Below, one piece after another: positions 1 to 34,806 of a stretch of DNA of 64,000 bases. A program made the translations under genes and the position numbers. The notes beneath the pieces were generated by a model, which made no database searches, was not told the origin of the DNA, and saw nothing but the letters and a program-made list of their open reading frames with translations. Origin of the DNA: Rhodothermales bacterium (GTDB lineage: Bacteria; Bacteroidota; Rhodothermia; Rhodothermales; Bin80); the NCBI GenBank assembly GCA_965216255.1, contig OZ244148.1:4692359-4756358 (forward strand), in the 5' to 3' direction. How positions within the stretch are numbered: position 1 is the first letter of the stretch; every line of letters starts with the position of its first letter.

Positions 1-1073
1 ACCTACAGGTAATTCATGAAGAGACACCTATACCCTCCGCAGTCAACAAGCTAGTTCAGGCGTTAAATGTCTTGAACTCTGCCTTGGTAGAGTTGGCCGA
101 CACTATGGGGGCAGGGATTCCGGGGCCGTTTTGGTGTGGCTCAAGCGAAATTCTGGATGGTAGACAACTCAAGCGGGTTTACCCAACAACAGCCGGAGAC
201 GAGGAGTTTTTGAATAGGGCGACCCTGATGTCAGCGCTGGTTCTAGAAGGGTTAGACTCCAAATCGCTACGAGGGCTACTCCGAGCTTGGGGTGAAAATC
301 TTCATTACAAGAGCTTCCGAAAGAACAAAGGCCAGTCTCTGGGTTCCCGTCAGCTCTTGGAACGAGTAGCGCTCATCGCCATCCTTGTCGAACACTTGCA
401 GCCGCCGAAATCGGAGTTGCCCGTGCTACTGAAACAAGCAGAAGGCCGGATTGACAGTGGAGATGCCGCTGATCTGCTGACTGAACCCGTGCTGTTACGT
501 CAACAAATACGAAAAGAAACGGCGCCGCTGGCCAAGCTATATGATCTTCGAACTCACGGCGGGATAGCTCATGTACCCGATACAGAGAAGATTGATCATG
601 CCATGGCTGAGCTCGGCTTGCCCGAGAGGAATTGGCATCGGACTCATTATCTGACCCTTACTGAACTTGTTGCCAAGAGCTTAAGACTAGTACACGCTCA
701 CCTAATTCAAGCCAGTCATATCCTGCTGATCACCGCTTACGGCACGCGAGCCTTCTCGGTCACAGCTGAGACGAACCCACACGAACGAATGCGGCGTATC
801 GCGGCCTTCAAAGCAGATGGCGAAGAATCCCTTGTATTTTGCAACTTCGGCGTGCTAACCACTGGTTTTGACGCCCCGCAAATTACATGTGCGCTCATCG
901 CGCGACCAACGGCTTCCCTGGTCCTCTACAGCCAGATGGTGGGCCGCGCCATTCGGGGACCGCGTGCCGGAGGGACTTCAGAGGCCCTCATCGTCACGGT
1001 CATCGATCAGAACCTACCCGGCTTCCGTAGCGCGGCAGAGGCCTTCACTAACTGGGAAGACGTATGGAACTAG
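1..1073 (+). CDS. SF2 (DEAD/DEAH-like) helicase, 3' part only; gene starts upstream of the window
   Basis: The frame of the listed 72..1073 ORF stays open back to nt 3 with no stop, so the TTG at 72 is not the true start. RecA2 motifs are present: motif V VLTTGFDAP and motif VI YSQMVGRAIRGP. The stop (1071-1073) overlaps the ATG (1064) of the next gene. Confidence 0.75.
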   Translation, partial: LQVIHEETPIPSAVNKLVQALNVLNSALVELADTMGAGIPGPFWCGSSEILDGRQLKRVYPTTAGDEEFLNRATLMSALVLEGLDSKSLRGLLRAWGENLHYKSFRKNKGQSLGSRQLLERVALIAILVEHLQPPKSELPVLLKQAEGRIDSGDAADLLTEPVLLRQQIRKETAPLAKLYDLRTHGGIAHVPDTEKIDHAMAELGLPERNWHRTHYLTLTELVAKSLRLVHAHLIQASHILLITAYGTRAFSVTAETNPHERMRRIAAFKADGEESLVFCNFGVLTTGFDAPQITCALIARPTASLVLYSQMVGRAIRGPRAGGTSEALIVTVIDQNLPGFRSAAEAFTNWEDVWN

Positions 1074-2461
1074 CCACTACAAACAACCTGGCGCACGAGC
1101 ACGACATCGTTCCGCCGCACCTCGCCGTACAAGCTATGCGAGACAATGGTTACAAGAACGCGGCGTATGCCCTCGCAGAACTCATAGATAACGCCATTCA
1201 GGCGAAGGCAACGGTCATTGAACTTCTGTGCGCTGAGCGGCGGGAGGTGGTAATGGCCAGGGAACGGGCGCGCGTCGATCAGGTGGCTGTTCTCGATAAC
1301 GGAGAGGGAATGGATGCCGACGTTCTCCGGATGGCACTGCAATTCGGCAACGGCACGCACCTCACCCCGGAGGAACAGAAGGGAATCGGCAAGTTTGGAA
1401 TGGGACTACCAAGCTCGTCCATCTCGCAGTGCAAGCGAGTCGACGTGTGGTCCTGGCAGGATGGCGTTAGTAGCGCTCTGCACTCCTATATCGACATTGA
1501 TGAAATCAAGAAGCGGACGCTGCGAAGTGTGCCCGAGCCAGAGCCACAGAACATTCCCGCGCTCTGGCGTGAGGCAGGGGGAACGTTTGGCGAGAGCGGG
1601 ACGCTGATCGTGTGGTCACGGCTCGACCGCATTCTTTGGAAGACGGCTCGGGCTTTCATTCGAAATTCGGAGAATCTCGTCGGCCGGTTATATCGAAAAT
1701 TCCTCACGGGTAGTAGTGTTCATGGGCCGGTCCGCATCCGCATGGCCGCCTTCAACATGGAAGACCCTTCGATTACAACCATCGAAGAGATAGCCCGTCC
1801 GAATGATCCAAGCTATCTCATCGCTGATACCTCCTGTCCGGAGCCGTTTGATAAGACGCCAATGTTTGAGAACTACGGTATCCCCATCGAACGCGAGATT
1901 CAGCGAGGTGACAAGACGCATCGTGTGTGCGTAACGTTCTCAATGTCGACCGAGGACGCACGAAGCCTGCCAAACGCAGGCGGCCTCCCACATGGGAAGC
2001 ACGCGGCGAACAACGTGGGCGTCTCTGTTGTCCGGGCCGGGCGCGAGCTTGAACTCAATAGCTCTTGGACGATCCAATACGACCCACGCGAGCGGTGGTG
2101 GGGCGTGGAAGTAGCCTTCCCGCCTTCCCTTGATGACCTTTTTGGCGTATCCAATAACAAGCAGTCCGCGCGAAACTTCCATCAGATCGACTACGACGCC
2201 CTGCGAGAGCCCGGGGAAACCGATACGCAGATGCTCGACAGACTAATGGAAGAAGAGCATCCGTTGGAACCCGTACTTCGTCTCTCCCACGACATCGAAA
2301 GCCGGCTGCGCGTTATCCGGGGGCTCATAAAGGTGCAGCGTGCGGGTGAAAGGGAAAAGCGGCGGCGGCACCAAGGGAACCACGACGCAGAGCGTATAGC
2401 AACAGAGAAGACGAGGGAGCGCCAGCCCAAGTTTACCATTGTGCTTCATAACATGTTGTAA
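1064..2461 (+). pseudogene. GHKL (MORC/HATPase_c_3-like) ATPase, 5' part, interrupted by an IS element
   Basis: Bergerat-fold motifs are present: N-box ELIDNAIQA, G1 LDNGEGMD, G2 GKFGMGLPSS. The ORF terminates at 2461 where IS1634-family sequence begins. The probable 3' continuation is at 4546..5070. Confidence 0.7.
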
Positions 2462-4550
2462 AGTATAGACTTGAAAATTGTTCTGGCACAACAAATAGCC
2501 ACCAAGTGAGGTTTTATGCCTTAGGTCATATGATCGTCTTGTGCATGGCCAAGGGCAGTGGATCGATGCACAAGGCATCGTAAATGGCCCTTAGTTCCAT
2601 ATCCGGCTGCGAGCTGGTGCGGACATGGAGTGTCCGTGCGTCCTTGCGCTCGAAGATGCTGGTCGTGCGAACCTGACGCCGAAGGATCCTCCTGAGTGTC
2701 GTCCAGCTGAAGCGTAGTCCTTTCTGGCGCAGACGCGTACGAATCACCTGCACCAACTGGTAAGCCAGGACCGTGATGAATAGATGGCCCTCCGCGCGCC
2801 GGCCTGTGGAATGATAGATCGGTCGCAGTCCGAGTTCCGACTTCAGGGACCGGAACACCGCTTCCAGATCGGTCAGCATCACATACGTGCGCCAGAGCTC
2901 TTCCGCGGTGAACTCCATCTCGTTGCTGCGCAGGCAATAGACGCCCGGATCGGTCATCAACGCGGGTGCTTTCGGCGTCTTTGTCCACGTGATGGACTGG
3001 GCCCGCTTGCCGTCCTCATCCGTCTCCACTTCTATCTCGTAATGCTGTCCGATGCCGCTGAAGCTCTGCTTCAATCGGCCGATACGTTCCCTTATGAGGT
3101 CGATGCGCTTTTGCGTCTTCGGCAGGGCAAGCCCCTCGGAAAGCTTGCCGAGGGCCTCCTCGAATCTTTCCGCTTTCTGCTTCACCTTGGCCTCTTCCAT
3201 CGCCATGCGGGACCGGGATCGGCAACAGAGCCGCACCTCGTCGTCTGCCTCCTCCCGGTACACCTCGACGTCACTGCCCGAGGCCGTCTGAAGAGCCTCG
3301 GCCTGCTGCTCATCAAAATGCTTCCTGCGCTCTCTTGATACCACGATGTAGCGGTAGCCCTCCTCTCGCAGCCAGTCTATGCGGTCCTGTGTGGCAATGC
3401 CCCGATCCATCACCACACGTGCGTTCTTGGGCGTCTCCAGGGACTCCAGCATCTCCTTGAGCGTGGACGCTTCGTTTACGTTGCCCTTGAAGACTTGGCT
3501 ACGACGCACGAACCCGCTGCCGCGCGTTACAAGAGCCAGCGTGAGCAGCACGCAGTCACTGCGACGCTCCTTCGAGCGTCCGTACTTGGCCTTGTCGATG
3601 CTCTTGCCACTGCCTTCCAGGAAGCTGCCCTTCAGATCATAGAGCGCGATCGTGGGCTCCAGATCAAACAGGTCCAGCGCCCGTGCAAAGAGGTGGTCCT
3701 CTATGGCCTTGCGGTGTTTGTGCAGCATGTCGCTGGCCCGGTACAGCTGCATGTCGGCCATCTTCTCGAAGTTGCAGCCCAGAAACTCGTCCAGGCCACT
3801 GGCAGAGGCCAGCCAACGCTTCGTGGCATGTTCGCTGGCCGGCTCGGCCAGACGGCCTATGATGGAGCCCGTGGCTGCATGCCGGAGGCCTCGTGTGATG
3901 CCAAGCTTCTCGAAGAGCTCATCCATGCCCAACTGCTCCATGGCCCAGAGCCCCACATGTTCTACGCCCACCGTGCGGGGCCGGACCGTTTTGAGCGAGT
4001 GGACATCCACATGGTGCCATTCGCGCGGCGGCGTCTCGCCCTTGCCCTCGGTCACGGCTACCGCCTTGCGCGCACTCAAAAGTTCTGCAATGCGGTGGGC
4101 CTCCTCTTCCACGCGACGGCAGCAACGCCCATGGGTACGAGTTCGAGCTGGCCCTTGAGCAGTGCCTCAATCCGGTTGCAGAGCGCACGCCAGTAGCGTT
4201 TGTCGATGCGGAAGTGGGCACCGAGATTGAGCAGGGTCTTCTGCCGGACCTTGCCCTCTATGCGTTCGCCGTGGCAGAGCCGAAAGGAATAGTAGCGTGT
4301 AGCGTTGTCGGTGGTATGGGTAAGCGATCGTCGGATATACATAGGGGGAAGATAGGGTTGGGAACCACTGCCCGCAATAGCCATCCATATTTTATGGCAC
4401 AACATTCGTATTTCAGTTTCTGTGAATCTCAAAAATGGTGCGTTGGTGGGAGCTTGTGGGGCTCTGGTGGGGCCAAGCACCATAAATTCCGACAAAACAG
4501 GCCTAAAGTGGGGACTCATCCCTAAAAAGCTCTCGAAATAATTAACTGCG
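2440..4550 (-). mobile_element. IS1634-family insertion sequence (boundaries approximate)
   Basis: It contains a DDE transposase with typical IS1634 blocks: YIRRS..RYYSFRL..GKVRQKTLLNLG, YDL..FLEG, GRSKERRSDC, VVMDRGIAT, FRSLKSELGLRPIYH. It sits between the two halves of the GHKL gene. I could not identify terminal inverted repeats or a target duplication by eye. Confidence 0.7.
2526..4342 (-). pseudogene. IS1634-family transposase carrying one frameshift near 4100-4125
   Basis: The N-terminal part (from MYIRRSLTHT at 4342, inside ORF 4076..4519) and the main body (ORF 2526..4112) are in different frames and overlap at about 4076-4112. Confidence 0.65.
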
Positions 4551-5070
4551 ATTATTGCCGACCTTCAAATTCAGCCGCCAAATGGTAAAGATGGGCCAGG
4601 AGGAAGGACACGCGGGAGAAAGCGACGAGCAGGAAGAGAAGGAATCAGGAGAGCGCGTTAAGGAGATCCGTGACGAACTTGTTCGAACCGGGATATCTGC
4701 AAAGGCAGCCGAGGATCTCGCCGTAAAGACGGTCTATGATGGGCTCAAATATATGTTCATCCCGGTCGACATGGAGGGCGAAGCGTTCTTTTCGGTCAGG
4801 CCCAAGGGAGGCTCTATGATCGTTCACCTGAACATCAACCATACTGCCTATTCGAAGCTAGTAGAACTGCTTGAAGGGGAGACAGATGATGCTTCGAGCG
4901 AGGAATTGAAGGATCGCCTCCGACGGGCGCGCGAGGGCCTCCGTCTCCTCTTATTCGCTTGGGCTCGCTACGAGGACGAGCAGCTAGGCAAGAAGAGCCG
5001 TGAGTGGGCACAGATGACTCGGACGGACTGGGGACGCATTGCCCGGCGTTTCCTCGACTATGATGAATAG
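4546..5070 (+). pseudogene. Probable 3' part of the interrupted GHKL ATPase gene
   Basis: The frame is open from 4546, immediately after the IS. The product is acidic and helical (..MIVHLNINHTAYSKLVELLEG..) with no independent start context. Its stop at 5068-5070 is 3 nt before the GTG of the PLD gene. Assigning it as the C-terminus of the GHKL protein is an inference. Confidence 0.45.
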
Positions 5071-5073
5071 GCC

Positions 5074-6066
5074 GTGCATCTCGTAACCCTTCACGCAGCA
5101 GACCTCGGCGACTGCCTGTGCAATGTGGCCGCGGGAGCCCGCGAGGTTATTCTCGTGGCACCTTTCGTCAAACGGGTTGCGCTCCGCCGTCTCCTTGACG
5201 CGGTCCCCACGACAGCACGCGTACGCTGCGTCACGCGCTGGCGACTGGAGGAGGTTCTCGCTGGCGTGAGCGATCTCGATGTCTGGACCCTGCTCACCGA
5301 GCGAAGTGGCTCGCTTGCCCTCCTCCCCCACCTGCACGCGAAGTATTACCGCTTTGACGACGTCGCCTTTGTAGGCTCAGCCAACATCACTGCCACAGCC
5401 CTCGATTGGCGTTCACAGGCAAATTTGGAGTTGCTTATCGAGATGCTTCCCACCGCGGAACTCCTAGCTTTTGAAGCTGCTGTGCAGAGGCAGGCGACTT
5501 CAGTTGACATGGCCATGTATCAGCACATGCAAGTGCTTGTTGATGCACTCCGCCCACAGGAGACAACGCTTGGTAGGGTGCCTGAAGTAGAAAAGGGCAA
5601 AAACATAAATACGAAGAGAGAGGCAACGGACTCAGCATTCGGGGAGAAGGACGCGGTTGGCCTCTGGTTGCCGAAATCGAGAACGCCTCAGGCGCTTTAT
5701 GAATTCTATCGCGGCGCTGATGACCTTCTCACGCGAGGGGCCAGGGAGGCTGCCGCTCTTGACCTTGCAGCCTTTCCACTTCCTCCTGGTCTGGAGGAAA
5801 AAGCATTCAACACGTACGTAGGGTGGTACCTCATACAAACGCCCGTCGTGCGTCGCATCGATGCTTTCGTGGCAGAACCACAGCGGTTCGGAGCCGTCCG
5901 GACGCTCCTTCAGCGAATGGAGGACTACCCGGATCGCCGGGATACTGCACGTGACTGGCAATCGCTTATGAGATGGCTTCTTTACTTTCTGCCAGGTCAT
6001 TACCAGGCATGGGAAGCGAAATACTCGGAGATCTTTGTCCGAGTTACGAATTGCATAATCCGATGA
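5074..6066 (+). CDS. Phospholipase D-family (single HKD motif) nuclease-like protein
   Basis: A canonical HxK(x)4D(x)6GSxN motif is present: HLHAKYYRFDDVAFVGSANIT. It is the only HKD copy, as in Nuc/BfiI-type dimeric nucleases. GTG start. Confidence 0.75.
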   Translation: MHLVTLHAADLGDCLCNVAAGAREVILVAPFVKRVALRRLLDAVPTTARVRCVTRWRLEEVLAGVSDLDVWTLLTERSGSLALLPHLHAKYYRFDDVAFVGSANITATALDWRSQANLELLIEMLPTAELLAFEAAVQRQATSVDMAMYQHMQVLVDALRPQETTLGRVPEVEKGKNINTKREATDSAFGEKDAVGLWLPKSRTPQALYEFYRGADDLLTRGAREAAALDLAAFPLPPGLEEKAFNTYVGWYLIQTPVVRRIDAFVAEPQRFGAVRTLLQRMEDYPDRRDTARDWQSLMRWLLYFLPGHYQAWEAKYSEIFVRVTNCIIR

Positions 6067-6194
6067 AATCGTCCACCCTGACCGTTGTGAGTCGACTGGG
6101 GTTGGTTAACCTGAAATCTCCTTGTTGTATAACTCATTTTATGAGATCATGATGGACTATAGCCAATATTTACCAGGAGTAGTGAAGGATATGC

Positions 6195-6660
6195 CTAATA
6201 ATATGATGCTGTAGATGACCCCATGTTAAAGAAGATCTTACCCGCGGAAGGCGCTTTACTGGGTACAGTCGCTACCGAATCTTCACTCTCAGCAATTCGA
6301 AGACGCGGGCCTGGAGGGCGATCATGTCTCCAAGCATCGTGAAGGAGACGCCCTTCTTGCCGATCAGGGGCTCTACCTGAGCCCTCATAGCGTGCACAGA
6401 TGCGCCATGAGGGCGGCAAAGCTAAATGCCTTGTGCCGCGTCCGTTTGGAACGGGCTTTCTGCTCTGCCGAGGGCGAACGCCCTGCCGCATGGATGATAC
6501 TACGACGAGCAGCCTTCTTGCCTTCCAGGTCATCTTCGGCAAAGAGTATCGGAGCCAAACGCTGTTTCATGGTAACCCGACTTCGTGTGCGCGGTGATAA
6601 GGCGCACGCGAAGTCAGGCCAAGTGGGGTCCATGATATCCGCGGGGAGCAGCACCGATTA
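6195..6660 (-). mobile_element. Remnant (3' end only) of a second IS1634-like element
   Basis: It encodes HMKQRLAPILFAEDDLEGKKAAR.. and, after frame changes, ..IALQARVFELLRVKIR. It is clearly alignable at DNA level with 57290-57520 plus 59313-59425. No transposase body is present. Confidence 0.6.
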
Positions 6661-6782
6661 TAGGGATCCGTTGGGTGTGTTTGCGACGGTGCCCGTTTGC
6701 CCTTGAGGTCGAGTCTCGGCAGAACCATTTCCGGGCATTCCTGTTGCGCATCGTTTGCCTTTCACAATTGAATTCGAATTAG

Positions 6783-9554
6783 ATGGGATCAAGTCAAGGC
6801 GCTGAGGGAATGTCGTTGCAGAACTGGATCGGAGCCCGGTGGTGGAAATGCGATCTTCACACGCATACACCTGCATCCTGCGACTTCGGTAAGGGCCTGA
6901 GTCAAGCAACACTTAGCCAGTGTACGCCGCGTGAGTGGCTGCTTGTCTACATGCGCGCGGGTATCGACTGCGTGGCCGTCACGGACCACGACGGCGGCGA
7001 TTGGATCGATCTTCTACAGGATGCCCTAGCCGTACTCGAGCGTGATAAACCTGCGGATTTTCGGCCGCTGTATCTGTTCCCCGGTGTCGAGATTTCAGTT
7101 CATGGAGACGTGCACCTACTTGCTATTTTTCCAACGGAAACGAACCAGTCAGACATAGACAGACTGCTCGGCGCAGTTGGTTTTACGGCAGGCAGCACAG
7201 TGACGACAAAGCCCTTCGAGAAGGTCGTTAAAGAAATTGTGAATGCGAAAGGCATTGCCATTCCAGCGCACGCTGACAAAGAAAAGGGCCTCTTGCAGAA
7301 GAGCCCGGGCCCAACGCTGGAGCAGGCGTTGGGCTGCGATAAAATATTTGCAATGGAAATCGTGGATTCCGATTTTGAAAAGCCACAACTCTACCGCGAC
7401 AAGAAACTGAAGTGGACCGAAATTCTAGGTTCCGACTCCCACCATCTTTCCGGCCAACCGGGGGGCCGCTTTCCTGGGAGCCGCTTCACTTGGGTGAAGA
7501 TGGGCTCACCCAATCTTGATGGACTGCAGCTTGCTCTGCTCGACGGCGCTCTCTCAGTGCGCCGTTCCGACAAGCATCCCGACACGCCGAACCGACACGC
7601 CGAGTGGGTTTTGGAGTCCATCGAGGTAATCAATACTAAATACATGGGCCGGGAGAGTCCATTCGTTGTACCACTCAACCCATGGTTGAATGCCATCGTC
7701 GGTGGACGCGGCACCGGAAAATCTTCCCTGATAGAGTTCCTAAGGATTGCGTTGCGCCGCCAGGGCGAGCTGCCGGACGAGTTGACGCCGGAGTTTGAGA
7801 AATATGCCGACGTCTGTCGGACTCGGGGCGGCAGTGGATTGCTAACCGTTGGGACGAAGGTTCGCGTGATCTATTCGAAAAGCGAATCGAAATTCCGCAT
7901 CCAGTGGGACCCGGATGGCAGCTCAAATGCGATCGAACAGAAGACGGAGGACGGAGGGTGGTCGCAGGCGGAGGGCGATGTTATTCACCGCTTTCCGGTT
8001 CGAATGTACAGCCAGAAACAGATCTTTCACCTGGCTAAGGCACCTAGTGCACTTCTTAGCATCGTGGACGATGCATCAGACGTGGATCACCAATCTTGGA
8101 GCAGCCGCTGGCGGAAGGAGGAGAATCGCTTTCTTTCTTTACGGTTGAGGACTCGGGAAGTCGAGGCTGAACTGAAGAAAAAGAATCGGCTAGGAGGTGA
8201 ACTTGAGGACGTGAAACGGAAGCTGGCGATCTTTGAGAAGAGTGGTCATGCCGATGTTCTGCGTTCGTACCAATATCACCGGCGTCAACAGCGAGTAATC
8301 GAGAATTGGCAGGTACAGTGGGCCCACGCGGGCGAACGAGTTCGGCAGGCGGGGACGAATTTCGTTCCGGATACTCTTGGAGTCGCCTATATCGATGCCG
8401 AGGCTAAGGCAGACTCGTCACTCTTGAAAAATGCCCAAACCGTTCGGGAACGCCTTGAAGCAATTCGGCAGCAACTGGAGCAGATCGCAATAGAAGCGGA
8501 CAACACGCTCGCCGAGTGGAGGGCGACGCTGGAGCAATCGGCTTGGAGACAGGCGGCCAATTCGGCTAATGATGCCTATGAGTCTCTGTCGGAGCAGTTG
8601 GCGGAGGAAGGGGTCAGTGATCCGAAGGACTACGGCTCACACATGCAACGCCGACAACTCATTGAGCAGGAGTTGGACGAGTTGGAGAGTCAAGAAAAGG
8701 AAATGGAGAGCTTAAGGGTCCAGGCAGATGACAGCCGCATGCAGTTACTTAAGATCCGCCAAGAGCTGACCAAGACCCGTCGCTCGTTCCTGGAAGGTGT
8801 GCTGATGGACAACCCCTACGTGCGTATTCAAGTCGTACCATACGGAGAACAAGAGACAGTCGAGACTGAGTTCCGCCGCCTGATCCAGAGGGATGATGAA
8901 AGCTTCGAGAAGGACATTCGATCACTCTTGGAGCCGCTCGAAAGGTTCCAGAAAAAGAAAAACAGCGCAACACAAATCGAAAAGGAGCTGGAAAAAATAA
9001 AGCAAGGGGTCCGTGCGATCGTTGAAGGCTCTGACCGCCCCGTAGATATGCGCTTCAAGTCTCATCTTAGCAAGTTGCAACCGGAGGTGTTCGATCGCCT
9101 CGACACATGGTTTCCCCAAGATTCCTTGGATGTCCAATACAGTCCGAAGGGCGACGGCGGAAACCTTCAACCTATCAGTGCGGGCTCGCCGGGTCAGAAG
9201 ACTGCGGCGCTCTTGGCATTCCTGCTCTCCTACGGTCGTGAACCACTAGTTCTGGATCAGCCGGAAGATGACCTCGACAACCGATTGATCCACGAATTGA
9301 TCGTTAAGCAGATCCGCGAGGAGAAGCAGAAGCGGCAAATAATTGTGGTAACGCACAATCCGAACATTGTGGTCAACGGCGATGCCGAGCTCGTTGTCGC
9401 GCTCGCCGCCAAGAATGGCAGGACACAAAAAGAGTGTGTAGGTAGTCTTCAGGAAAGGAAAGTGCGGGAAACCATCTGCACAATTATGGAGGGAGGTCTG
9501 GAAGCATTCAAGGAGCGGTATAACCGCATCACGATGAGAGTATCTGATGTCTGA
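6783..9554 (+). CDS. PHP-domain phosphoesterase fused to an ABC/SMC(Rad50/SbcC/RecF)-like ATPase
   Basis: PHP motifs: WWKCDLHTHTP, AVTDHD, HLLAIF, IPAHAD, GSDSHH. ATPase motifs: Walker A GGRGTGKSS, a long charged heptad-like middle segment, signature-like SAGSPGQKTA, Walker B LVLDQPEDDLD, H-loop VVTHNPN. Confidence 0.8.
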   Translation: MGSSQGAEGMSLQNWIGARWWKCDLHTHTPASCDFGKGLSQATLSQCTPREWLLVYMRAGIDCVAVTDHDGGDWIDLLQDALAVLERDKPADFRPLYLFPGVEISVHGDVHLLAIFPTETNQSDIDRLLGAVGFTAGSTVTTKPFEKVVKEIVNAKGIAIPAHADKEKGLLQKSPGPTLEQALGCDKIFAMEIVDSDFEKPQLYRDKKLKWTEILGSDSHHLSGQPGGRFPGSRFTWVKMGSPNLDGLQLALLDGALSVRRSDKHPDTPNRHAEWVLESIEVINTKYMGRESPFVVPLNPWLNAIVGGRGTGKSSLIEFLRIALRRQGELPDELTPEFEKYADVCRTRGGSGLLTVGTKVRVIYSKSESKFRIQWDPDGSSNAIEQKTEDGGWSQAEGDVIHRFPVRMYSQKQIFHLAKAPSALLSIVDDASDVDHQSWSSRWRKEENRFLSLRLRTREVEAELKKKNRLGGELEDVKRKLAIFEKSGHADVLRSYQYHRRQQRVIENWQVQWAHAGERVRQAGTNFVPDTLGVAYIDAEAKADSSLLKNAQTVRERLEAIRQQLEQIAIEADNTLAEWRATLEQSAWRQAANSANDAYESLSEQLAEEGVSDPKDYGSHMQRRQLIEQELDELESQEKEMESLRVQADDSRMQLLKIRQELTKTRRSFLEGVLMDNPYVRIQVVPYGEQETVETEFRRLIQRDDESFEKDIRSLLEPLERFQKKKNSATQIEKELEKIKQGVRAIVEGSDRPVDMRFKSHLSKLQPEVFDRLDTWFPQDSLDVQYSPKGDGGNLQPISAGSPGQKTAALLAFLLSYGREPLVLDQPEDDLDNRLIHELIVKQIREEKQKRQIIVVTHNPNIVVNGDAELVVALAAKNGRTQKECVGSLQERKVRETICTIMEGGLEAFKERYNRITMRVSDV

Positions 9555-10785
9555 CAGCCCGAAAGAGCTACTCCGCAGGATACAGCTGGGCGAAGATAGC
9601 TTGCTCGAACTCAAGGAAGTCACGTTCCAAGGAGACAATGTATCGGGACCCCGTCGACATGCGCTGGCTGACGAACTTGCTGCCTTCGCCAACACGCGCG
9701 GCGGTGTTCTTGTGCTAGGTGTCGAGAACACAACGCGGGACATCGTTGGAATCCCGATCGATCGACTCGACACGGTCGAACAGTTCGTATTCGAAATCTG
9801 CAACGAGAACATCGAACCGCCGCTGCCCTTCCTATCTTTCCGGACGGAGCTACCCAATGCGGTCGGGGAACTGCGACCTCTGCTCAAGGTGGAAATTCCG
9901 CGTGGCCTTTTCGTTTACAGGAGTCCTGGGGGTTACTTTCACCGGCAGGGAAGTTCGAAACGCCAGATGCCTACTGAGCTCCTTCTGCGCCTCGGGCAGC
10001 AGCGAGGCCAAGTGCGCCCGTACCGATACGAGGAACAGCCGGTGCCTCGGACGACTTTCGCCGACCTCGAGCTAGATCGGCGGCAGCGATTCGCGAGGGC
10101 TGGTGCCGACGACCTTGTTACTTTCAAGAAAATGAAGCTCGCGACGGAGGACGAGTCAGGGAAAACACGCGCTACCGTCGCTGGCATCCTGCTGTGCTCG
10201 TCGAGCCCGCAGCAGTGGCTCCCCAGTGCATTTATTCAAGCGGTATGCTACCAAGGCATTCGTCAGGATTCAAACTACCAACTCGATGCGCAAGCGGTCA
10301 CCGGACCTGTGGATGAGCAGGTTGCGGCGGCGATGATATTCGTCCGGCGGAATATGAAAGTGGCCGCCCGCAAGACTCCTGGTCGCGAGGACATCCCGCA
10401 ATTCAGTCTGCGCGCGGTCTTTGAGGCGATCGTGAACGCGGTGGCACACCGCGATTATGCCGTTTATGGGTCGAAGATCCGACTGTTCCTTTTCGCGGAT
10501 CGACTAGAACTCTACTCGCCTGGTCCGCTGCCGAACTCTGTCACCGTCGACTCACTAGCGCTCCGGCAATCGACCCGCAATGAATTGCTGACGACGCTGT
10601 TGATGAAGTGTCAGGTGGAGGATCCAACGGGTGAGATAGACCGGCAATTCTTGATGGAGAAGCGAGGAGACGGCGTGCCCATCATATTGCGCGAGAGTCT
10701 GGAGCTATCCGGCCAGCGGCCGGAGTACCGGATAATTGACGATGCGGAGGTACTGCTCACGATTTACGCAGCGGGGCAAACGTGA
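9547..10785 (+). CDS. AlbA_2 (Schlafen-core, divergent AAA) domain protein with HATPase_c_4-like C-terminal region
   Basis: N-terminal GEDSLLELKEV and FANTRGGVLVLGVEN are typical of AlbA_2. The C-terminal IVNAVAHRDY..IRLFLFADRLELYSPG is typical of the associated HATPase_c_4-like module. The ATG at 9547 overlaps the upstream stop (9552-9554). Confidence 0.7.
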   Translation: MSDSPKELLRRIQLGEDSLLELKEVTFQGDNVSGPRRHALADELAAFANTRGGVLVLGVENTTRDIVGIPIDRLDTVEQFVFEICNENIEPPLPFLSFRTELPNAVGELRPLLKVEIPRGLFVYRSPGGYFHRQGSSKRQMPTELLLRLGQQRGQVRPYRYEEQPVPRTTFADLELDRRQRFARAGADDLVTFKKMKLATEDESGKTRATVAGILLCSSSPQQWLPSAFIQAVCYQGIRQDSNYQLDAQAVTGPVDEQVAAAMIFVRRNMKVAARKTPGREDIPQFSLRAVFEAIVNAVAHRDYAVYGSKIRLFLFADRLELYSPGPLPNSVTVDSLALRQSTRNELLTTLLMKCQVEDPTGEIDRQFLMEKRGDGVPIILRESLELSGQRPEYRIIDDAEVLLTIYAAGQT

Positions 10786-10822
10786 TAGGCGAAGACCCTG
10801 TGCGTATTCAAAGCAGTGGGAC

Positions 10823-11402
10823 TTATGTATTTATCGTCACATGTGCCAACAGCCCCGGCTCCGGCATCCCCTTATCAATCAGACGGGGCGGCAGCTCTGC
10901 CATGATCACGCCTCTGGCCTCATTGGCGGGGTCCACGTACTTGGGACGCTCACGCCGGATCACCTTCAGCTTGGCTGCCTCGTAATCCAGCGTCTCTGTC
11001 ACCTCCTTGCCGATTGAGAAGCGCCGTGCCTTCTTCCGGCTTGATGACAATCACCTCGCGCCGCAGATGTGCAGGCAACACCTGGCGTACAGCAGCCCGC
11101 TTCGCAGCAGGCAGCCTTTGCTTTAGCGTGATGGTCTCGGTCTGCGGCAAAGGCGCCACACACTCCGCCTTTTCAAACAACGCCGCTTGCTGCGTGTCCA
11201 GCTCCGGCACAAACCGTTCGCTCCTGGCACCAAAGACCAGACGCCGGAGTTCGGCCAACTGGAACTCAAGCTCCGCCAACCGCAGACATTGACCGGCGGT
11301 CTCCTGACGTAACCGGCTGTTTTCCTCGCGCAGGCCTACCAGCTCCTCGCTGGGCAATTCAATCGTCGCGGAAGAGGTGGGGGGGGGGGCGGTGGCCTGC
11401 AT
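10823..11402 (-). pseudogene. IS66 transposase TnpC, N-terminal third, frameshifted and truncated
   Basis: ORF 10950..11402 carries the leucine-zipper-like N-terminus (..LAELRRLVFGARSERF..). ORF 10823..11050 (..LDYEAAKLKVIRRERPKYV..PGLLAHV) is in a different frame. The rest of the protein is missing. Confidence 0.7.
11379..11389. repeat. Homopolymeric G11 (C11 on the coding strand) tract at codons 5-8 of IS66 tnpC
   Basis: Counted directly: g at 11379-11389, encoding the PPP(T) run of MQATAPPPTS. Confidence 0.9.
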
Positions 11403-11465
11403 GATGATTCAACAGATCATGCAAGCATAAAGTCACGTTTTCTTAGATAGTCATTTGCCTACTCC

Positions 11466-11801
11466 TTAGCCCCTCACCACATAGCGGCGCCGGTATTTGA
11501 GAGACCTTAGCGAAATCCCCTCCAGTAGCAGCACCATCTGTGCCCACATCGGTTTGTCGCTCTTAAGCGGCTCGAACGTGCACGCTTCCAGCCGTATGTA
11601 GAAAAGGGCAAAGCCGCTCCTATCCCATATCAGCAGCTTTAGGTGCGTCCTTCTTCGGTTTACAAAGACGAAGACATCACCCGACATCGGGTCCTTCCCC
11701 GGGCCCGAGTGCACCAGAGCGCACAGGCCGTCAAAGCTCTTGCGCATGTCGGTGGGCTTGCGCTGCAGATAGTACCGGTGAGAAGGCCCCAGCCCGATCA
11801 T
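11466..11801 (-). CDS. tnpB: IS66 Orf2 (TnpB)
   Basis: Diagnostic sequence: YYLQRKPTDMRKSFDGLCALV...VFVFVNRRRTHLKLLIWDRSGF. Confidence 0.85.
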   Translation of the reverse strand: MIGLGPSHRYYLQRKPTDMRKSFDGLCALVHSGPGKDPMSGDVFVFVNRRRTHLKLLIWDRSGFALFYIRLEACTFEPLKSDKPMWAQMVLLLEGISLRSLKYRRRYVVRG

Positions 11802-11856
11802 GGCTTAGCCAGTGTTGCCAAGAACGAGGAGGATACCGGTACGAAGAAGCGCAGCC

Positions 11857-12096
11857 TCACCCCGCTCGGATACACCACCTCCGCCTGTGCCTGCCCTCGC
11901 AGAGCAGGGGCCCTAACTCCACGAAGGCTGCGCCTTCGGATGCAGCGGCCTTCTTACCATACTTGTGTCGCCAGTAAGACAGCTGCGAACGGCAGATTCC
12001 GTGCTCGGCACAAAAGGCCTCCGCTGTCTGGCTCCCTTTCAGGTACTGTTCTACCAGCGGATCCATTTCTTCCGCCGTGCCGTTAGGCTTGCGCAT
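11857..12096 (-). CDS. tnpA: IS66 Orf1 (TnpA, HTH protein)
   Basis: ..QYLKGSQTAEAFCAEHGICRSQLSYWRHKYGKK is typical of IS66/IS3-type HTH orfA proteins. It lies immediately upstream of tnpB. Confidence 0.7.
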   Translation of the reverse strand: MRKPNGTAEEMDPLVEQYLKGSQTAEAFCAEHGICRSQLSYWRHKYGKKAAASEGAAFVELGPLLCEGRHRRRWCIRAG

Positions 12097-12245
12097 GCGT
12101 CGTGGGCTTTGATCCTCGGGTCAGGCAACAATCTCCTGACCAGCCCTTCACCCACGCAAGGTGTGCTTCACGGGATGCTTGCAGCGTCTTGCCGCCGCGC
12201 CTCCAGGTCGAACTTGAAGAGCATAGCCCGCTGCACTGTTTGATA

Positions 12246-12746
12246 TTAGGCGGCCGGCACATTCGTTGACCTATCCATGGCATGGCGCGCGTGGGCTACT
12301 AGGATGGCTGGTTTGTGTGCTGCAATTTCAGCGCCTGGTGTGAGTCGAATGGTGTGCGCAAATTGGACGGGTTTGAGGGCCGGATCATCGTGGATGCGAA
12401 AATCGGCTTCAGCTTCATCGCCAACTGCCGGTTGGCCTTCGGTAGAGATAACCTCTTCGATTCGAACCACCTTGCGCACGCGGATGAGACGCTGGGCCAG
12501 GAGAATGCACGCGTGGGCGTGGCGCCCGTGGATTACAATGGCCGCGCCTGCGTGTTTCGCTTTATGGCGGGCCTCATCCAGTCTGCCCATCGCGGTCTGA
12601 GCTTGCCGCTTGCGGCGAGACTCTGAGCGGGCTTCCGGGTTTTCCGGAGGTCTGCTTGCTTTCTCGGACGCCTGCGCTATAGCCAGCGACAGAGGAATGA
12701 ACGTGCCCTGCACTATACTTTCCAGGCTTGCACCGCGTAATTTCAA
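12246..12746 (-). CDS. Hypothetical ORF, no motif recognised
   Basis: This is only an open frame of 166 codons between the IS66 remnant and the protease gene. Its 5' end overlaps the leader of the + strand gene, so it may be spurious. Confidence 0.15.
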   Translation of the reverse strand: MKLRGASLESIVQGTFIPLSLAIAQASEKASRPPENPEARSESRRKRQAQTAMGRLDEARHKAKHAGAAIVIHGRHAHACILLAQRLIRVRKVVRIEEVISTEGQPAVGDEAEADFRIHDDPALKPVQFAHTIRLTPGAEIAAHKPAILVAHARHAMDRSTNVPAA

Positions 12747-12777
12747 TCATCGGAATGCAACCAACCGGAGTCAAACC

Positions 12778-15700
12778 ATGCTAACGCGTAACGCTCTGGG
12801 CAGCCATGTGGCAGGCTTCATGGCAGTAATGTTGTTGGCGTCGGCAGCTTCGGCGCGCGCGCAGGATTGGGCCGCGTGGGACGTATCTCAAGCGAACGCG
12901 AGACCGGGTCGTGTTTGGGTTCAGTTTGTGGAGGGAACGCCCATAGTGGCCGGAGCGGCAAAGACCGGTCTTGACGTGTTTGATCGTGAGGGGGCCAAGG
13001 CTGGCGTGTACGAGATCAGCCAGGCATTCCCGTTTCTGGATGCTATAGCCAAGAAACGGGCGCTCTCTGCAGAGGCGCAGCAATTGCGGCGCATTTACTA
13101 CGTCCGGTATGATGAAATCCACGATCCTAGAACCGTTGCATCCGCCTTGTCCCGCGATCCGCGCGTGGTATACGTGGAGCCGGATTACATGCGGCGTCCG
13201 ATGTGGGATCTGGAGGACGTGCCAGCGTATCCCGCAAGCCCGCCGGAAGTCCCCAATGATCCGCTATTCTCCGATGCTCCGTACATGCAACGCTATCAGC
13301 TTCCTGATGCGTGGGGCATGGTGAAGGGCGAAGAAGGTGCCGTGGTGATAGCCATTGCGGACGTAGGGACGGACTGGAGACACCCGGACCTCGTAAACAA
13401 TGTGTGGACCAATTCCGGGGAGATCCCGGACAACGGCATCGACGACGATGGTAACGGCTTTGTAGACGACGTACACGGCTGGAATTTTTCGACCAATTCG
13501 CCGGTTGCCCCGGGCAGACCCACTGGCAGTTCCCGTCACGGTACGGCTGTTGCAGGAGCGGCCGCTGCCGAAGCGAACAACGGCACGGGGATGGCCGGCA
13601 CCAGCTGGAATGCACGGTTCATGCCGCTCAATGTGGGTTGTAGCCCGGCTTCGCCAGTGTGCAGCTATTGGGCGGGTACCCTGTATGCGGCGACAAACGG
13701 GGCCGATATCGTAACGGCCAGTTACGGGGGACCGGGGTATTCGGTAACGGAGCGGCAAACCTTAGAGGCTGCAGTGGCGGAAGGTGCGTTGATCGTAGCC
13801 TCGGCCGGAAACACTTCTACGGACAATGATCTTTTTCCATTTTACCCTGCATCGCATACCATCACACTCAGCGCTGGAGGTACTCGGTCTCAGGATGACG
13901 TGAATTTCTATAACTATGGCCGAAGCGTGAACGTGTTTGCTGCGGGAAGGGATGTGGTCGTGACGCGGCCGGACGCCGAATACGGGCATGTGTTTGGTAC
14001 GTCTTTTTCCGCGCCGCTTGTCGCCGGCATTGCCGCGCTCGTGAAGGCCGCATATCCGCACTATACGCCGCTCCAAGTTCGGGAGCGAGTTAGACTTACG
14101 GCCGACAATATTGACGACGCCAACGATGCTGCCCTGGCGGGTCTACTAGGTCGCGGGCGTGCAAATGCGTACCGAGCCGTGACGGAGAGCGGATTCCCGG
14201 CCATTCGAATGACGGATGTCAAAGTTGCAGGCTTTTATCGTGAACGAAGGAGTGGGGATATCGTTGAGCTCACGGCAACATTTACCAACTATCTTGCTGA
14301 CGCCGAAAACCTGTCAATTGGCTGGTTTTCGGACGCCCCCTTTGTGCAAATTAATTCCGGAAGTACGCAAATAGGTGCAATGCGGCAGTGGGAAAGCCGC
14401 GCGGCCAGCCTGTCATTTCGTCTTTCTGATGACGCCCCCTATCGGAGGCGCTTTACCGTTTCACCTCGTGCGATATCTGGGAGCTACGAAGATGCGTCGG
14501 ATGTGGTGCGATTTCTGGTCAACCAAGGTTCAGTTGCTACCCATCACACGGGCGGGCTGGCGTTTACCATCACCACAGAAGGCAATTTCGGCTACCTCGA
14601 CAGACGCCACAGTTTGTCCGCCCTGGGCTCGGGCGTCCAGGTCTTCGATGCCGGCGGCAACAGGCGCAGCATCCTATTCGAAGGCGGCTTGCTGGTTGCT
14701 ACCGGCCCGGATGCCGTGTCGGACTGCCTTTACGAAGATCGGCGAAGAGCCGAAAATATCGTGCAGGATACGGATTTTGTACCGTTGCCGGGCTCAGGAT
14801 TGCGAATTAGGACCCCTGGAACGACTACGGCCCAGGAAGGCCAGGTTGCGTTAACCGATGCAGGTGCCTCCAACCCCATCGGGATAGAAATCGTGCAGGA
14901 AAGCTTCATGGAAACGGGAGCTGCGTACGAGGACATGGTAATACTACGGTATACGTTCACCAATCCGACACAACGTGACCTGACCGATATGCATGTAGGT
15001 CTTTACCTCCACTGGACGATGAACTATTCTCCAGCAAGTGACCATGTGCGTTTCGAGGCGAGCAGGAATTTGGGTATCCAGCAGGATAGGCTCGAAAACC
15101 CGAGGCTGGTGGCCGGAGCCATGCCGCTTACCACTGGTCTTCCGGTGCATTACGCGGCCCTGGATCTGGAAAACCAGCCTTTTACAAGCCAGTCCAAATG
15201 GTCGTGGCTAACGGGCGGGCTCCGAAATCCTGGGACGGAAGCGAAAAACTGGGCACAAGTTATCGGACTCGGCCCGTTTTCCATGAGTCCAGGAGAAGTC
15301 ACCGAGATTGCCTTTGCGGTTGCCACAGGAAGCAGCAGTGCAGACTTCATTCAAAATGTAGACAGTGCACAAGTCTTGTGGGAAGCACTCAAGAAGCCTG
15401 CGATGGCGCAATATATACAGAATGTGAATGGTCGGGACGTGGATATTTACATAGATGACGAACTCCATTTCGACGACTGGGCTTTCCAGTCCGCTTCGGC
15501 ATTCGAGAGACTGGAGGACGGTGAGCACACTATTGACATTGTTGCCAGCGCAAGTCCGGATAATGCAGAGCCAATTGCCACGCGCACGTTCGGCGCCGAT
15601 AGTGGCACGGCCCAACACGTCTTCGTTCACGGCAACGAGACTAACCTGAGTATCGCGGTAGTCGACGCCGTGCGCACACGTGAATTGGGAAGTGACAGGA

Positions 15701-16335
15701 TGAGCTTTTACGTCGTTCACGGGGCGGCAGATCTGGGATCTCTAAGTATTGACTTGCAGCACCCGGATAACAATGAAACAGTGCTCCTGGAAAATGCTGT
15801 GTACGGAGATGCGAGTACGTATTTAACCGTGCAACCTGGTACATATGGACTGGAGGTCCGTACATCGCCGGATGATCGACTGGTCAATCTCTTCGAATTC
15901 GATCTTTCGGCACTGGCCAGGCACGCTTTCGTGCTGTGCCTTTCCGGCGCAGGTGTTTCCGCTCTAGATGGACTAACAGTCTTGGGTGTACAGTCAGACG
16001 GATCCACCTTCTTTCCGACTAATGTAACGACGTCGGAAGCTGTAGCCGAAGTGCCGACTAGCTTCGCGCTCAAGGGCAACTACCCAAATCCATTTAGTTC
16101 GTCTACCACTGTTTCGTTCGATTTGCCGTTCGCGGCCGCCGTATCGGTCAAGGTCTTCGACTTGATGGGCCGCGCAGTGCTAAGCGTTCCTCCCGTGACA
16201 ATGCAACTGGGTGCAAATAAGTCTTTTTCATTGAACGGCACAGCCCTCGCAAGCGGCACGTATCACTATCGCGTTACCGCAGCCAATGACGAGGAGTCAG
16301 TTGTTCAAACAGGTCATATGACGATATTGCGGTAA
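12778..16335 (+). CDS. Secreted S8 (subtilisin-family) serine peptidase with T9SS C-terminal sorting domain
   Basis: Start moved to the ATG at 12778, giving signal peptide MLTRNALGSHVAGFMAVMLLASAASARA. There is an I9-like propeptide. Catalytic triad contexts: IAIADVGTD (Asp), SRHGTAVAG (His), GTSFSAPLVAG (Ser), plus AGN. The C-terminus FALKGNYPNPFSSSTTVSFDL...YHYRV is T9SS type-A CTD-like. Confidence 0.85.
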   Translation: MLTRNALGSHVAGFMAVMLLASAASARAQDWAAWDVSQANARPGRVWVQFVEGTPIVAGAAKTGLDVFDREGAKAGVYEISQAFPFLDAIAKKRALSAEAQQLRRIYYVRYDEIHDPRTVASALSRDPRVVYVEPDYMRRPMWDLEDVPAYPASPPEVPNDPLFSDAPYMQRYQLPDAWGMVKGEEGAVVIAIADVGTDWRHPDLVNNVWTNSGEIPDNGIDDDGNGFVDDVHGWNFSTNSPVAPGRPTGSSRHGTAVAGAAAAEANNGTGMAGTSWNARFMPLNVGCSPASPVCSYWAGTLYAATNGADIVTASYGGPGYSVTERQTLEAAVAEGALIVASAGNTSTDNDLFPFYPASHTITLSAGGTRSQDDVNFYNYGRSVNVFAAGRDVVVTRPDAEYGHVFGTSFSAPLVAGIAALVKAAYPHYTPLQVRERVRLTADNIDDANDAALAGLLGRGRANAYRAVTESGFPAIRMTDVKVAGFYRERRSGDIVELTATFTNYLADAENLSIGWFSDAPFVQINSGSTQIGAMRQWESRAASLSFRLSDDAPYRRRFTVSPRAISGSYEDASDVVRFLVNQGSVATHHTGGLAFTITTEGNFGYLDRRHSLSALGSGVQVFDAGGNRRSILFEGGLLVATGPDAVSDCLYEDRRRAENIVQDTDFVPLPGSGLRIRTPGTTTAQEGQVALTDAGASNPIGIEIVQESFMETGAAYEDMVILRYTFTNPTQRDLTDMHVGLYLHWTMNYSPASDHVRFEASRNLGIQQDRLENPRLVAGAMPLTTGLPVHYAALDLENQPFTSQSKWSWLTGGLRNPGTEAKNWAQVIGLGPFSMSPGEVTEIAFAVATGSSSADFIQNVDSAQVLWEALKKPAMAQYIQNVNGRDVDIYIDDELHFDDWAFQSASAFERLEDGEHTIDIVASASPDNAEPIATRTFGADSGTAQHVFVHGNETNLSIAVVDAVRTRELGSDRMSFYVVHGAADLGSLSIDLQHPDNNETVLLENAVYGDASTYLTVQPGTYGLEVRTSPDDRLVNLFEFDLSALARHAFVLCLSGAGVSALDGLTVLGVQSDGSTFFPTNVTTSEAVAEVPTSFALKGNYPNPFSSSTTVSFDLPFAAAVSVKVFDLMGRAVLSVPPVTMQLGANKSFSLNGTALASGTYHYRVTAANDEESVVQTGHMTILR

Positions 16336-27485: not shown

Positions 27486-28077
27486 CACAGTAATCTAGTC
27501 CGCCATAGTATATTCTGCCATTATAGGAAAGGGTTTGCGCCTCAAAAACGGAACGAACGGTCGGCAGGGCACCTTACATGCTGCCTGAGATCACCACGCA
27601 CTAACAAGGGTGGAACCCCGCCTCAGAATCGCAGCGGATCGTGCCTGATCGCATTCAAGTACGATCCAGGGCGATTTTTGCGTTGGCCAGATAACACTAA
27701 TTATCTAGGGACGCAGAAGCCGGGATATCCGTCGCTCACGCTCGTCAGCATCCGGCGCATCGTTCGCGGCTGTGCTGCCGGCGCCGGGCTTCAGGGCCGC
27801 TACAGCGCGCACAGCCGCCGGTGGGTAGCCGCCCAGTCACCCATAGAGCACGCGGCCACGCTGCAGGAGGCGCAACTGTCCGGCCGCTGCCTCAGGTACG
27901 CTAACAACCAACCCCATAGCCCGCTCTAGCTGCTTTTGCATACAGAACTCAGCCCACCGAGCGGGCCGGGACTCTCTACGAGAGGGCAACCTACCTCGAC
28001 GAGGTGTACGGCGGCACGACACATGTTGTATTTTGGCTGTGATTCGGCTCCGGGAGTTCGTCCAGGACGATGGGAGA

Positions 28078-29633
<1,556 letters not shown>

Positions 29634-29637
<4 letters not shown>

Positions 29638-30047
29638 GCAATTCCGACGAACGGCGCTGGCAGCAGCGGCTCGACAACTTCGGGACGGCTCTCGCACAAC
29701 TGGCGAACGCCTGCGAACGCGAGCGGTACGACGACCTGGAGCGGGCCGGCCTGATCAAGACGTTCGAGTTCTGTTTCGAGTTGTCTTGGAACGTTCTCAA
29801 GGACCTGCTCTTCTATGAGGGGCATGAAGTGAAGGTGCCACGCGCGGTGATCCGCAAGAGCTTTGAGGTCGATTACATTGACGAGAGTGATTGTGAGACC
29901 CTGCTCGACGCCCTGGATAAGCGCAACCTGTTGAGCCACACGTACTGGAGCGACGTGGCTCGGGAAGCCGAAGCCCTGATCAAGGGACGCTACTGCCCTG
30001 CCCTGCTGCGACTCAGCCGGACTCTGGACGCCATGCGGACGCTATGA
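29634..30047 (+). CDS. HEPN-type nucleotidyltransferase substrate-binding protein (HI0074 family; HepT-like toxin)
   Basis: Conserved ..WQQRLDNF..A.. start and the Rx4H motif RNLLSHTY. The GTG start overlaps the hsdM stop (GTGA). Confidence 0.75.
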
Positions 30048-30391: not shown

Positions 30392-30406
30392 TGGCTCCGT
30401 TGCACT

Positions 30407-34806
<4,400 letters not shown>

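Follow-up and report, generated by a model that had tools for sequence, protein, structure and literature searches.

What is encoded by the three co-directional genes at the left end of a 64,000-nucleotide (nt) stretch of Rhodothermales bacterium DNA (contig OZ244148.1; this whole stretch is called the window below), and in what state are they? An initial annotation of nt 1-6066 proposed a restriction-like module made of a superfamily 2 (SF2) helicase, a MORC-like GHKL ATPase and a phospholipase D (PLD)-family nuclease with a single HKD motif. Listing and translating the open reading frames (ORFs) returned three co-directional ORFs at the positions given there, together with the tight junctions that had been described. 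The first ORF ends at nt 1073 and overlaps the ATG of the GHKL gene, at nt 1064, by 10 nt. The 3' piece of the GHKL gene ends at nt 5070 and leaves a gap of 3 nt before the GTG of the PLD gene at nt 5074. We found that nt 741-6066 probably represents the decayed remnant of the effector half of a restriction-modification (R-M) system of the Ssp type, which is based on DNA phosphorothioate (PT). Since SspB-SspC-SspD lie upstream of the trio in its relatives, the trio would be the effector half of PT-based R-M rather than a free-standing unit. The window copy itself is dead: of the helicase just a stump is left, an insertion divides the GHKL gene in two, and only the PLD gene is intact.

Linkage of the family to ssp genes

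An uninterrupted trio was looked for in relatives and was found in L007, a 186-kb metagenomic contig which carries an undamaged locus and is 95-98% identical to window nt 741-12302 apart from an insertion sequence (IS). The gene order of L007 is sspB-sspC-sspD, two accessory genes, helicase (516 amino acids, aa), GHKL (610 aa), PLD, Ppl, AlbA_2 and IS66, and the last three also follow the PLD gene in the window. The ssp genes of L007 are recognised by PADLOC as SspB (3e-79), SspC (1.9e-303) and SspD (2.9e-107). The first accessory gene encodes a 153-aa protein with a weak GIY-YIG-like match, and the second is DndB-like and split by an IS630-type element. The same layout, with ssp genes followed by helicase and GHKL, was also found in two metagenomic loci (L001 and L002), in Salisaeta longa (L003) and in Calothrix PCC 7507 (L005). 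The overlap of the helicase and GHKL genes, 8-10 nt, is conserved among the loci. The intact SF2 helicases of the relatives, about 516-540 aa in length, contain ResIII, DEAD and Helicase_C domains; their best PADLOC match is PbeA (2.5e-22), in the helicase core only. The PLD protein of the intact relatives is about 320 aa long and likewise ends in a helical domain. Among the cultured hosts that carry intact loci are Calothrix PCC 7507, Salisaeta longa, Nitrococcus mobilis Nb-231 and Rhodococcus spongiicola.

We then surveyed the family at a larger scale. A protein search for GHKL homologues gave more than 4,000 clusters, and a scan in which each GTDB species was represented by one genome gave at least 353 confirmed relatives, of which the best 80 species-level loci were surveyed. 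These 80 loci come from about 15 phyla plus one archaeal metagenome-assembled genome. They include cyanobacteria, Actinomycetota, Bacteroidota, Chloroflexota, Armatimonadota, Acidobacteriota, alpha-, beta- and gamma-Proteobacteria, Myxococcota, Planctomycetota, Gemmatimonadota and others. Adjacency was counted by tblastn with family representatives, and only loci with enough flanking sequence were counted, so the denominators differ. The helicase gene lies immediately upstream of the GHKL gene on the same strand in 69 of 75 loci, the PLD gene lies immediately downstream of it in 47 of 72, and the trio is complete in 42 of 69. An SF2 helicase gene and a nuclease gene are thus conserved neighbours of the GHKL gene, and the three families form a tight, translationally coupled operon across many phyla, which supports the initial annotation. 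As the third member of the trio, PLD is frequent and not universal.

The ssp genes accompany this operon in most cases. At least two of SspB, SspC and SspD were found within 10 kb in 41 of 47 loci, and a cysteine desulfurase (SspA/IscS-like) was present in 49 of the 80. The position of the ssp block takes three forms: it is upstream and co-oriented in 47 loci, downstream and co-oriented in 4, and downstream in the opposite orientation in 8. Because the linkage is kept through these three arrangements, it has the signature of functional coupling, and at the family level the association of these genes is far beyond chance. The initial annotation had placed any methylase or further partner upstream of the window. 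An upstream partner does exist in the relatives, namely SspB-SspC-SspD, often with a cysteine desulfurase, but it is not a methylase.

The genes between sspD and the helicase are variable (L007 6965-9893, L005 5457-8366, L002 6147-7274). This accessory set includes a small, weakly GIY-YIG-like protein and a DndB-like protein of up to 751 aa. One accessory protein of L002 has a nucleoside 2-deoxyribosyltransferase-like C-terminus.

State of the three genes in the window

The first ORF (nt 3-1073, plus strand, 356 residues) had been taken for the 3' part of a helicase gene starting upstream of the window. This proved wrong on two grounds, a BLASTP result with two families and a DNA breakpoint at nt 741. 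The homology search with the 356-residue ORF gave two disjoint sets of matches. Residues 1-243 match P0121 (51% identity) and P0123 (54%) over 227-242 residues, and only the last ~110 residues are helicase, with 88% identity to residues 395-516 of the intact helicase P0122 in a 126-residue alignment. At the DNA level, blastn aligned window nt 741-2425 to L007 11219-12903 at 97.9% identity with a sharp breakpoint at 740/741, and the DNA to the left of nt 741 had no similarity to L007. The ORF is an in-frame chimera of a foreign fragment (nt 3-740, plus strand) and a helicase 3' end (nt 741-1073, plus strand). The 740/741 junction is read as a fusion by deletion or illegitimate recombination, not a helicase gene continuing upstream.

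The helicase remnant consists of the last 110 codons, out of about 516, and the stop codon, and Pfam recognises only Helicase_C in it (1.9e-7). Motif V (TTGFDAP, nt 858-878) and motif VI (QMVGRAIRG, nt 933-959) are present as described before. Since the homology to L007 starts abruptly at nt 741, motifs I-IV are absent and only V and VI are kept. The window thus lacks a helicase with both RecA-like domains and motifs I-VI, and neither a helicase 5' part nor an ssp gene was found elsewhere in the 64 kb.

The foreign fragment is not part of the helicase-GHKL-PLD module. It is truncated at its 3' end and comprises 246 codons, which correspond to residues ~164-403 of the 421-aa P0121; about 18 codons are missing at the 3' end of the foreign gene. 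Neither P0121 nor the 314-aa P0123 has a Pfam domain, and nothing was found for this family in Pfam (E<=5), PADLOC or PDB sequences. The fragment contains a conserved motif, LYDLRTHGGIAH, at nt 546-572, a segment with an Rx6H pattern that may be reminiscent of HEPN. The homologue of this family in L008 adjoins an NTP_transf_2/Polbeta (MNT-like) gene and a UvrD helicase.

As the initial annotation had seen, an IS lies inside the GHKL gene. Its 5' part (nt 1064-2425, plus strand, codons 1-454) matches HATPase_c_3 at 9e-24 and is 81% identical to residues 1-454 of P0002, a 611-aa homologue. Its 3' part (nt 4600-5070, plus strand, codons 455-610 and the stop) was placed by homologue alignment; it encodes a C-terminal helical/beta domain, and the homologues from L001 and L002 match this part in their residues 452-611 at 76-78% identity. 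When nt 1064-2425 and 4600-5070 are joined, they give an uninterrupted 610-aa protein that has no frame change, keeps all invariant columns of the family and is collinear with homologues of 600-611 aa.

The inserted element is 2,169 bp long and lies on the minus strand at nt 2426-4594. These borders follow from the alignment of its flanks to L007, in which the two flanks overlap by 5 bp (L007 12899-12903). The corresponding target-site duplication, GCCAG, is seen at nt 2421-2425 and 4595-4599. The element belongs to the IS1634 family (NCBIfam transpos_IS1634, 2.2e-73, above cutoff) and has imperfect terminal inverted repeats within the arms 2425-2440 and 4581-4596. It contains a 528-aa transposase ORF (nt 2526-4112, minus strand) and, upstream and in another frame, a 147-aa ORF (nt 4076-4519, minus strand). 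The 147-aa ORF overlaps the transposase ORF by 37 nt; it may extend the N-terminus of the transposase through a frameshift, or it may be a small ORF of its own. No second copy of the element was found in the 64-kb window.

We next examined the kind of ATPase that this gene encodes. The three Bergerat motifs reported before are intact (ELIDNA, nt 1178-1195; DNGEGM, nt 1295-1312; GKFGMG, nt 1388-1405), and a fourth, GTLIVWS, is located at nt 1598-1618. The protein thus shows the full ATP-binding series (ExxxNA, DxGxG, GxxGxG and a downstream GT), in columns that are invariant among 20-25 homologues. A profile of 20 GHKL sequences matched only MORC2, MORC3 and MORC4 in the PDB. For P0002, which is 81% identical to the window protein, an AlphaFold2 (AF2) model was obtained at a pLDDT of 76. 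Foldseek aligned this model over 430-480 columns to MORC2 (DNA complex), MORC3 and SMCHD1, followed by MutL-LN40 and Hsp90, with moderate TM-scores (TMt up to 0.57), and no histidine kinase appeared in the top 50. A GHKL domain with an S5/transducer domain, closer to MORC and MutL than to histidine kinases, is therefore indicated, which agrees with the earlier assignment of the middle protein. The protein is therefore a GHKL-transducer ATPase of the MORC-like kind that carries an extra C-terminal domain, an assignment that is firm at the domain level and looser in its fine classification. In the profile and Foldseek comparisons, MORC is a slightly better fit than MutL.

The extra C-terminal domain shares homology with the C-terminus of a winged helix-turn-helix (wHTH) protein that is additionally encoded at the Salisaeta locus. 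In Salisaeta longa (L003), this extra 399-aa protein, with N-terminal wHTH-like matches, is encoded at 11829-13028 between the GHKL and PLD genes; it was compared with window nt 4729-5055, the C-terminal part of the GHKL gene. The same locus carries an ART-PolyVal gene downstream of PLD.

The third gene (nt 5074-6066, plus strand, GTG start) is intact and encodes a 330-aa PLD-superfamily protein with a single HKD motif, as supported by PADLOC, alignment, AF2 and Foldseek. A PLD domain (residues ~1-145) is followed by a disordered linker (167-194) and a conserved C-terminal helical domain (~195-325) that ends in a beta-hairpin. The HKD motif, HAKYYRFDDVAFVGSAN, is found at nt 5335-5385 (residues 88-104). 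Its presence had been described correctly, but its spacing had not: the motif is HxKx4Dx5GSxN, one residue shorter than the x6 claimed. There is one HxK...GSxN motif per chain. In an alignment of 33 homologues, H88, G101, S102, A103 and N104 do not vary, and at least 90% of the sequences keep K90.

Both sequence and structure comparisons placed this protein with nucleases. Pfam gave PLDc_2 at 1.7e-4, below the gathering score, PADLOC gave DrmC (1.7e-10) and ZacB (4e-9), and the best PDB sequence match was SauUSI. In a Foldseek search with the AF2 model (pLDDT 88), SauUSI, NucT, NgoAVII-R and Zucchini took ranks 1-4 and 6. Phosphatidylserine synthase followed from rank 12, Streptomyces PLD stood at rank 47, and the top 50 contained no cardiolipin synthase. 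The fold is therefore nearer to nucleases than to phospholipid synthases, as the initial annotation had assumed. This suggests a nuclease-type single-HKD PLD protein, predicted to cleave DNA. The C-terminal helical half with its beta-hairpin could be a winged-helix DNA-binding domain, judging from secondary structure. The protein is 96% identical to that of L007, and a single base differs from L007 in the first ~125 nt of the gene, GTG included. Thus, the shorter PLD gene call in L007 is an annotation choice only.

Taken together, since the helicase is a 110-codon stump on a foreign ORF, the module is doubly inactivated here and not merely interrupted by an IS. The dN/dS of the remnants against L007 was 0.25-0.40, from 6-28 substitutions, which are too few to show relaxed selection.

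Proposed role of the cassette and alternative explanations

In the proposed mechanism, SspABCD would mark host DNA with PT. The helicase would translocate on DNA at the expense of ATP, and the GHKL protein would dimerise on ATP binding and, like MORC and MutL, serve as a clamp or switch on DNA. A PLD dimer, with one active site per dimer, would then nick or cut DNA without the proper PT pattern. The trio would be functionally analogous to SspFGH and DndFGH and to ATP-dependent PLD restriction enzymes. An HKD nuclease with an SF2 helicase beside PT genes is a recurrent restriction component, for example PbeA (PMC10853773). In the lineage of the window, a rearrangement removed the DNA upstream of helicase codon ~407, including the ssp genes at this position, and fused the stump in frame to an unrelated ORF, and the IS1634-family element split the GHKL gene after or before this event. 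On its own, SspFGH is toxic to PT-free cells and causes damage to DNA without PT (PMC8092258). Because an unprotected restriction module is presumably toxic, decay would be expected after loss of the modification genes. It is our conjecture, by analogy, that the double inactivation fits such toxicity.

Several observations weigh against reading the trio as the effector half of a PT system. Its coupling to PT or to phage defence is suggested by gene neighbourhood only. The linkage to sspB, sspC and sspD is seen in the relatives and is not visible in the 64-kb window. PLD is missing in about one third of the loci and may not be the only or essential effector. In 6 of 47 loci, no ssp gene lies within 10 kb and the helicase-GHKL pair stands among housekeeping genes. 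The trio may attack unmodified DNA or instead be activated by PT, and the 740/741 breakpoint could in principle be an assembly chimera.

The main alternative to restriction of unmarked DNA keeps the coupling to Ssp and proposes an SspE-like mode, in which PT or the Ssp machinery stimulates the trio, for example as a PT-activated ATPase or nickase. SspBCD has SspE as its other single-operon partner; PT stimulates SspE, which is harmless when PT is absent (PMC8092258), and GHKL ATPases are ligand-gated switches. However, neither PADLOC nor Pfam revealed homology of the trio to SspE (DUF262/DUF1524-type), and in combining a helicase with a nuclease the trio is like the classical ATP-dependent restriction enzymes, whose target is unmarked DNA. 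The double inactivation also argues, weakly, for a module that is harmful once protection is lost. We consider the SspE-like mode unlikely.

It is still less probable that the trio is a free-standing helicase-MORC-PLD restriction-like system, whose partner, if any, would be a methylase and whose ssp genes would be mere neighbours in defence islands. The linkage to ssp genes in 41 of 47 loci, across about 15 phyla and in three gene orders, and the operon-like spacing to sspD speak against chance proximity. The 6 loci without ssp genes are what a free-standing system would produce, but in those examined the only neighbours were housekeeping genes or a cysteine desulfurase, with no methylase beside the pair. 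The defence island around the window copy, which also carries Ppl and a type I R-M system, would suit a free-standing system as well. So would the MORC/paraMORC operons with SF2 helicases, nucleases and methylases that are reported in Iyer et al. 2008 (PMC2292703).

A role in maintenance or repair of PT DNA, in the manner of MutL-UvrD-MutH and directed at nicks or oxidative damage at PT sites, appears very improbable. The GHKL fold does match the MutL N-terminal domain as well, and the best curated match of the helicase is the repair helicase RadD, far below cutoff. The distribution of the family is patchy, with horizontal transfer and defence islands flanked by IS elements; the nearest structures of the PLD protein are restriction and defence nucleases; and no MutS-like partner was seen. 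We give least credence of all to an assembly artefact at 740/741 with an intact helicase in the organism: there is only a single sequence and the IS-rich region favours mis-joins, but the junction has no repeat, the break falls within the coding region of each partner gene and the two read through in frame, and the source contig is 5.4 Mb.

We therefore return to the Ssp-coupled restriction effector. The family is best read as a third kind of such effector, which differs from both SspE and SspFGH and is not represented in PADLOC or NCBIfam. Whether the helicase/MORC-like GHKL/PLD cassette indeed forms a third, so far uncharacterised, SspABCD effector class beside SspE and SspFGH is in our judgement an even question. 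It is apparently an uncharacterised, widespread module that looks like a variant of PT-based R-M. Only about 15% of sspBCD clusters have a recognised restriction partner (196 SspFGH, 199 SspE and 36 both, of 2,678; PMC8092258). A conserved helicase-MORC-PLD cassette beside sspBCD in about 15 phyla would help to fill this partner gap and, if the reading is true, may explain a sizeable share of the clusters that are now classed as orphans. It would further be the first instance of a MORC-type ATPase reading or enforcing a DNA-backbone (PT) epigenetic mark, and would give a tractable bacterial model of MORC-type ATPases that couple an epigenetic mark to DNA processing. The window copy is mainly an example of module decay, by deletion-fusion and IS insertion, in a defence island, and is no candidate for functional work.

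The rest of the window supports the view of its surroundings as a multi-system defence island, with Ppl, an AlbA_2 gene, type I R-M and several IS elements. A Ppl-type PHP-ATPase gene (nt 6783-9554; PADLOC Ppl 1.2e-143, NCBIfam TrlF-family ATPase 1.7e-187) is overlapped by 8 nt by a gene for a 412-aa Schlafen AlbA_2/HATPase_c_4 protein (nt 9547-10785). The conservation of this pair in L007 suggests a two-gene unit rather than single-gene Ppl. A complete-looking type I R-M system is located at nt 28033-34806 (hsdM 28033-29637, hsdS 30407-31660, hsdR 31942-34806), and its presence makes the region a multi-system island. Two large S8 subtilases with DUF4397 are encoded at nt 12610-16335 and 20894-24406, the first with a Por_Secre_tail (type IX secretion sorting) domain, a hint at a host from the Bacteroidota or another lineage of the FCB group. 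Mobile elements include an IS66-family TnpB (nt 11466-11801) with neighbouring ORFs at nt 10950-11801 (minus strand) and an IS256/Mutator-family transposase at nt 25641-26816 (minus strand). A plasmid origin was dropped after megablast of nt 1-6066 against PLSDB gave no match, and a phage-borne system was dropped after only ~6 good matches were found among 2.9 million viral contigs.

Comparison with known systems

No named, validated system matches the trio, as the initial annotation had stated. A PADLOC run on the window trio gave partial matches only (MzaB for the GHKL protein; DrmC and ZacB for PLD), and none of the three proteins reached any family cutoff in NCBIfam. MzaB of the Mza system is the best match of the GHKL N-domain in both PADLOC (8e-18) and NCBIfam (73 bits). 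Since these 73 bits stand against a cutoff of 850 bits and cover the N-terminal ATPase region only, the GHKL protein is not MzaB, and the Z1 helicase and AIPR partners of Mza are absent. DISARM likewise has a PLD-family protein, DrmC, in a helicase-containing defence system, and DrmC is the best PADLOC match of the PLD protein (1.7e-10). The NCBIfam score for DrmC is 21 bits against a cutoff of 133, so the locus is not DISARM. Models for DrmA, DrmB and DrmD had no match among the neighbours scanned, and no adjacent methylase was seen.

In the literature that we searched, whose coverage is incomplete so that absence is no proof, the cassette was nowhere described as a partner of Ssp. GHKL and MORC are mentioned neither in a 2024 reappraisal of PT systems (PMC10853773) nor in a 2026 study of BREX-4/ssp neighbourhoods.

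The PLD domain has its best structural matches in SauUSI (7clg), a PLD-helicase fusion, and NgoAVII-R (4rct). SauUSI and CglI/NgoAVII follow the same logic, in which a single-HKD nuclease dimerises and is driven by a fused or separate SF2 motor; CglI combines a PLD R-subunit with a separate helicase-like motor subunit. The R-subunits also have an extra C-terminal domain like the PLD protein here, although here it is helical and not B3-like. These enzymes differ from the trio in their low identity (15-19%) and in having neither a GHKL subunit nor a PT partner.

PbeA/CxC-ABC-DndE systems share more of the context, since an HKD nuclease with an SF2 helicase forms their restriction part and is associated with PT, as here (PMC10853773). 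In PbeA, however, the HKD and helicase parts are fused and the partner is Dnd, whereas here they are separate genes with GHKL between them and the partner is Ssp. The trio also lacks the CxC ABC ATPase, DndE and the small disordered protein of PbeA-type systems. PbeABCD was rejected as an identification: the helicase core alone matches PbeA, the GHKL and PLD proteins match no Pbe model, and PbeC is an ABC ATPase.

The gene content itself is closest to the MORC/paraMORC operons of Iyer, Abhiman & Aravind 2008 (PMC2292703), in which a GHKL+S5 ATPase stands beside an SF2 helicase and a nuclease, as here. In that paper, MORC/paraMORC ATPases with SF2 helicases and nucleases were predicted to act in R-M-like systems, HKD domains were listed among the nucleases, and Nitrococcus mobilis (L088 here) was shown in a figure. 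ParaMORC2 was described there as common in cyanobacteria, as is the GHKL family here. Its text contains no mention of phosphorothioation genes (0 occurrences of PAPS or Dnd).

Finally, SspABCD-SspFGH and SspABCD-SspE have the same modification genes, and SspB, SspC and SspD of the relatives are recognised by PADLOC at 1e-79 to 1e-303. On the effector side there is no sequence relation, and none of the three proteins matched an Ssp effector model of PADLOC. SspF has Walker A only, SspH is FtsK-like and SspE is a single protein (PMC8092258). An identification of the trio with SspFGH, taken as helicase, HATPase and PLD, was dropped for these features of SspF and SspH. In organisation, SspFGH is likewise a three-gene effector cassette directly beside sspBCD, and the predicted outcome, damage to foreign DNA, would be common to both.

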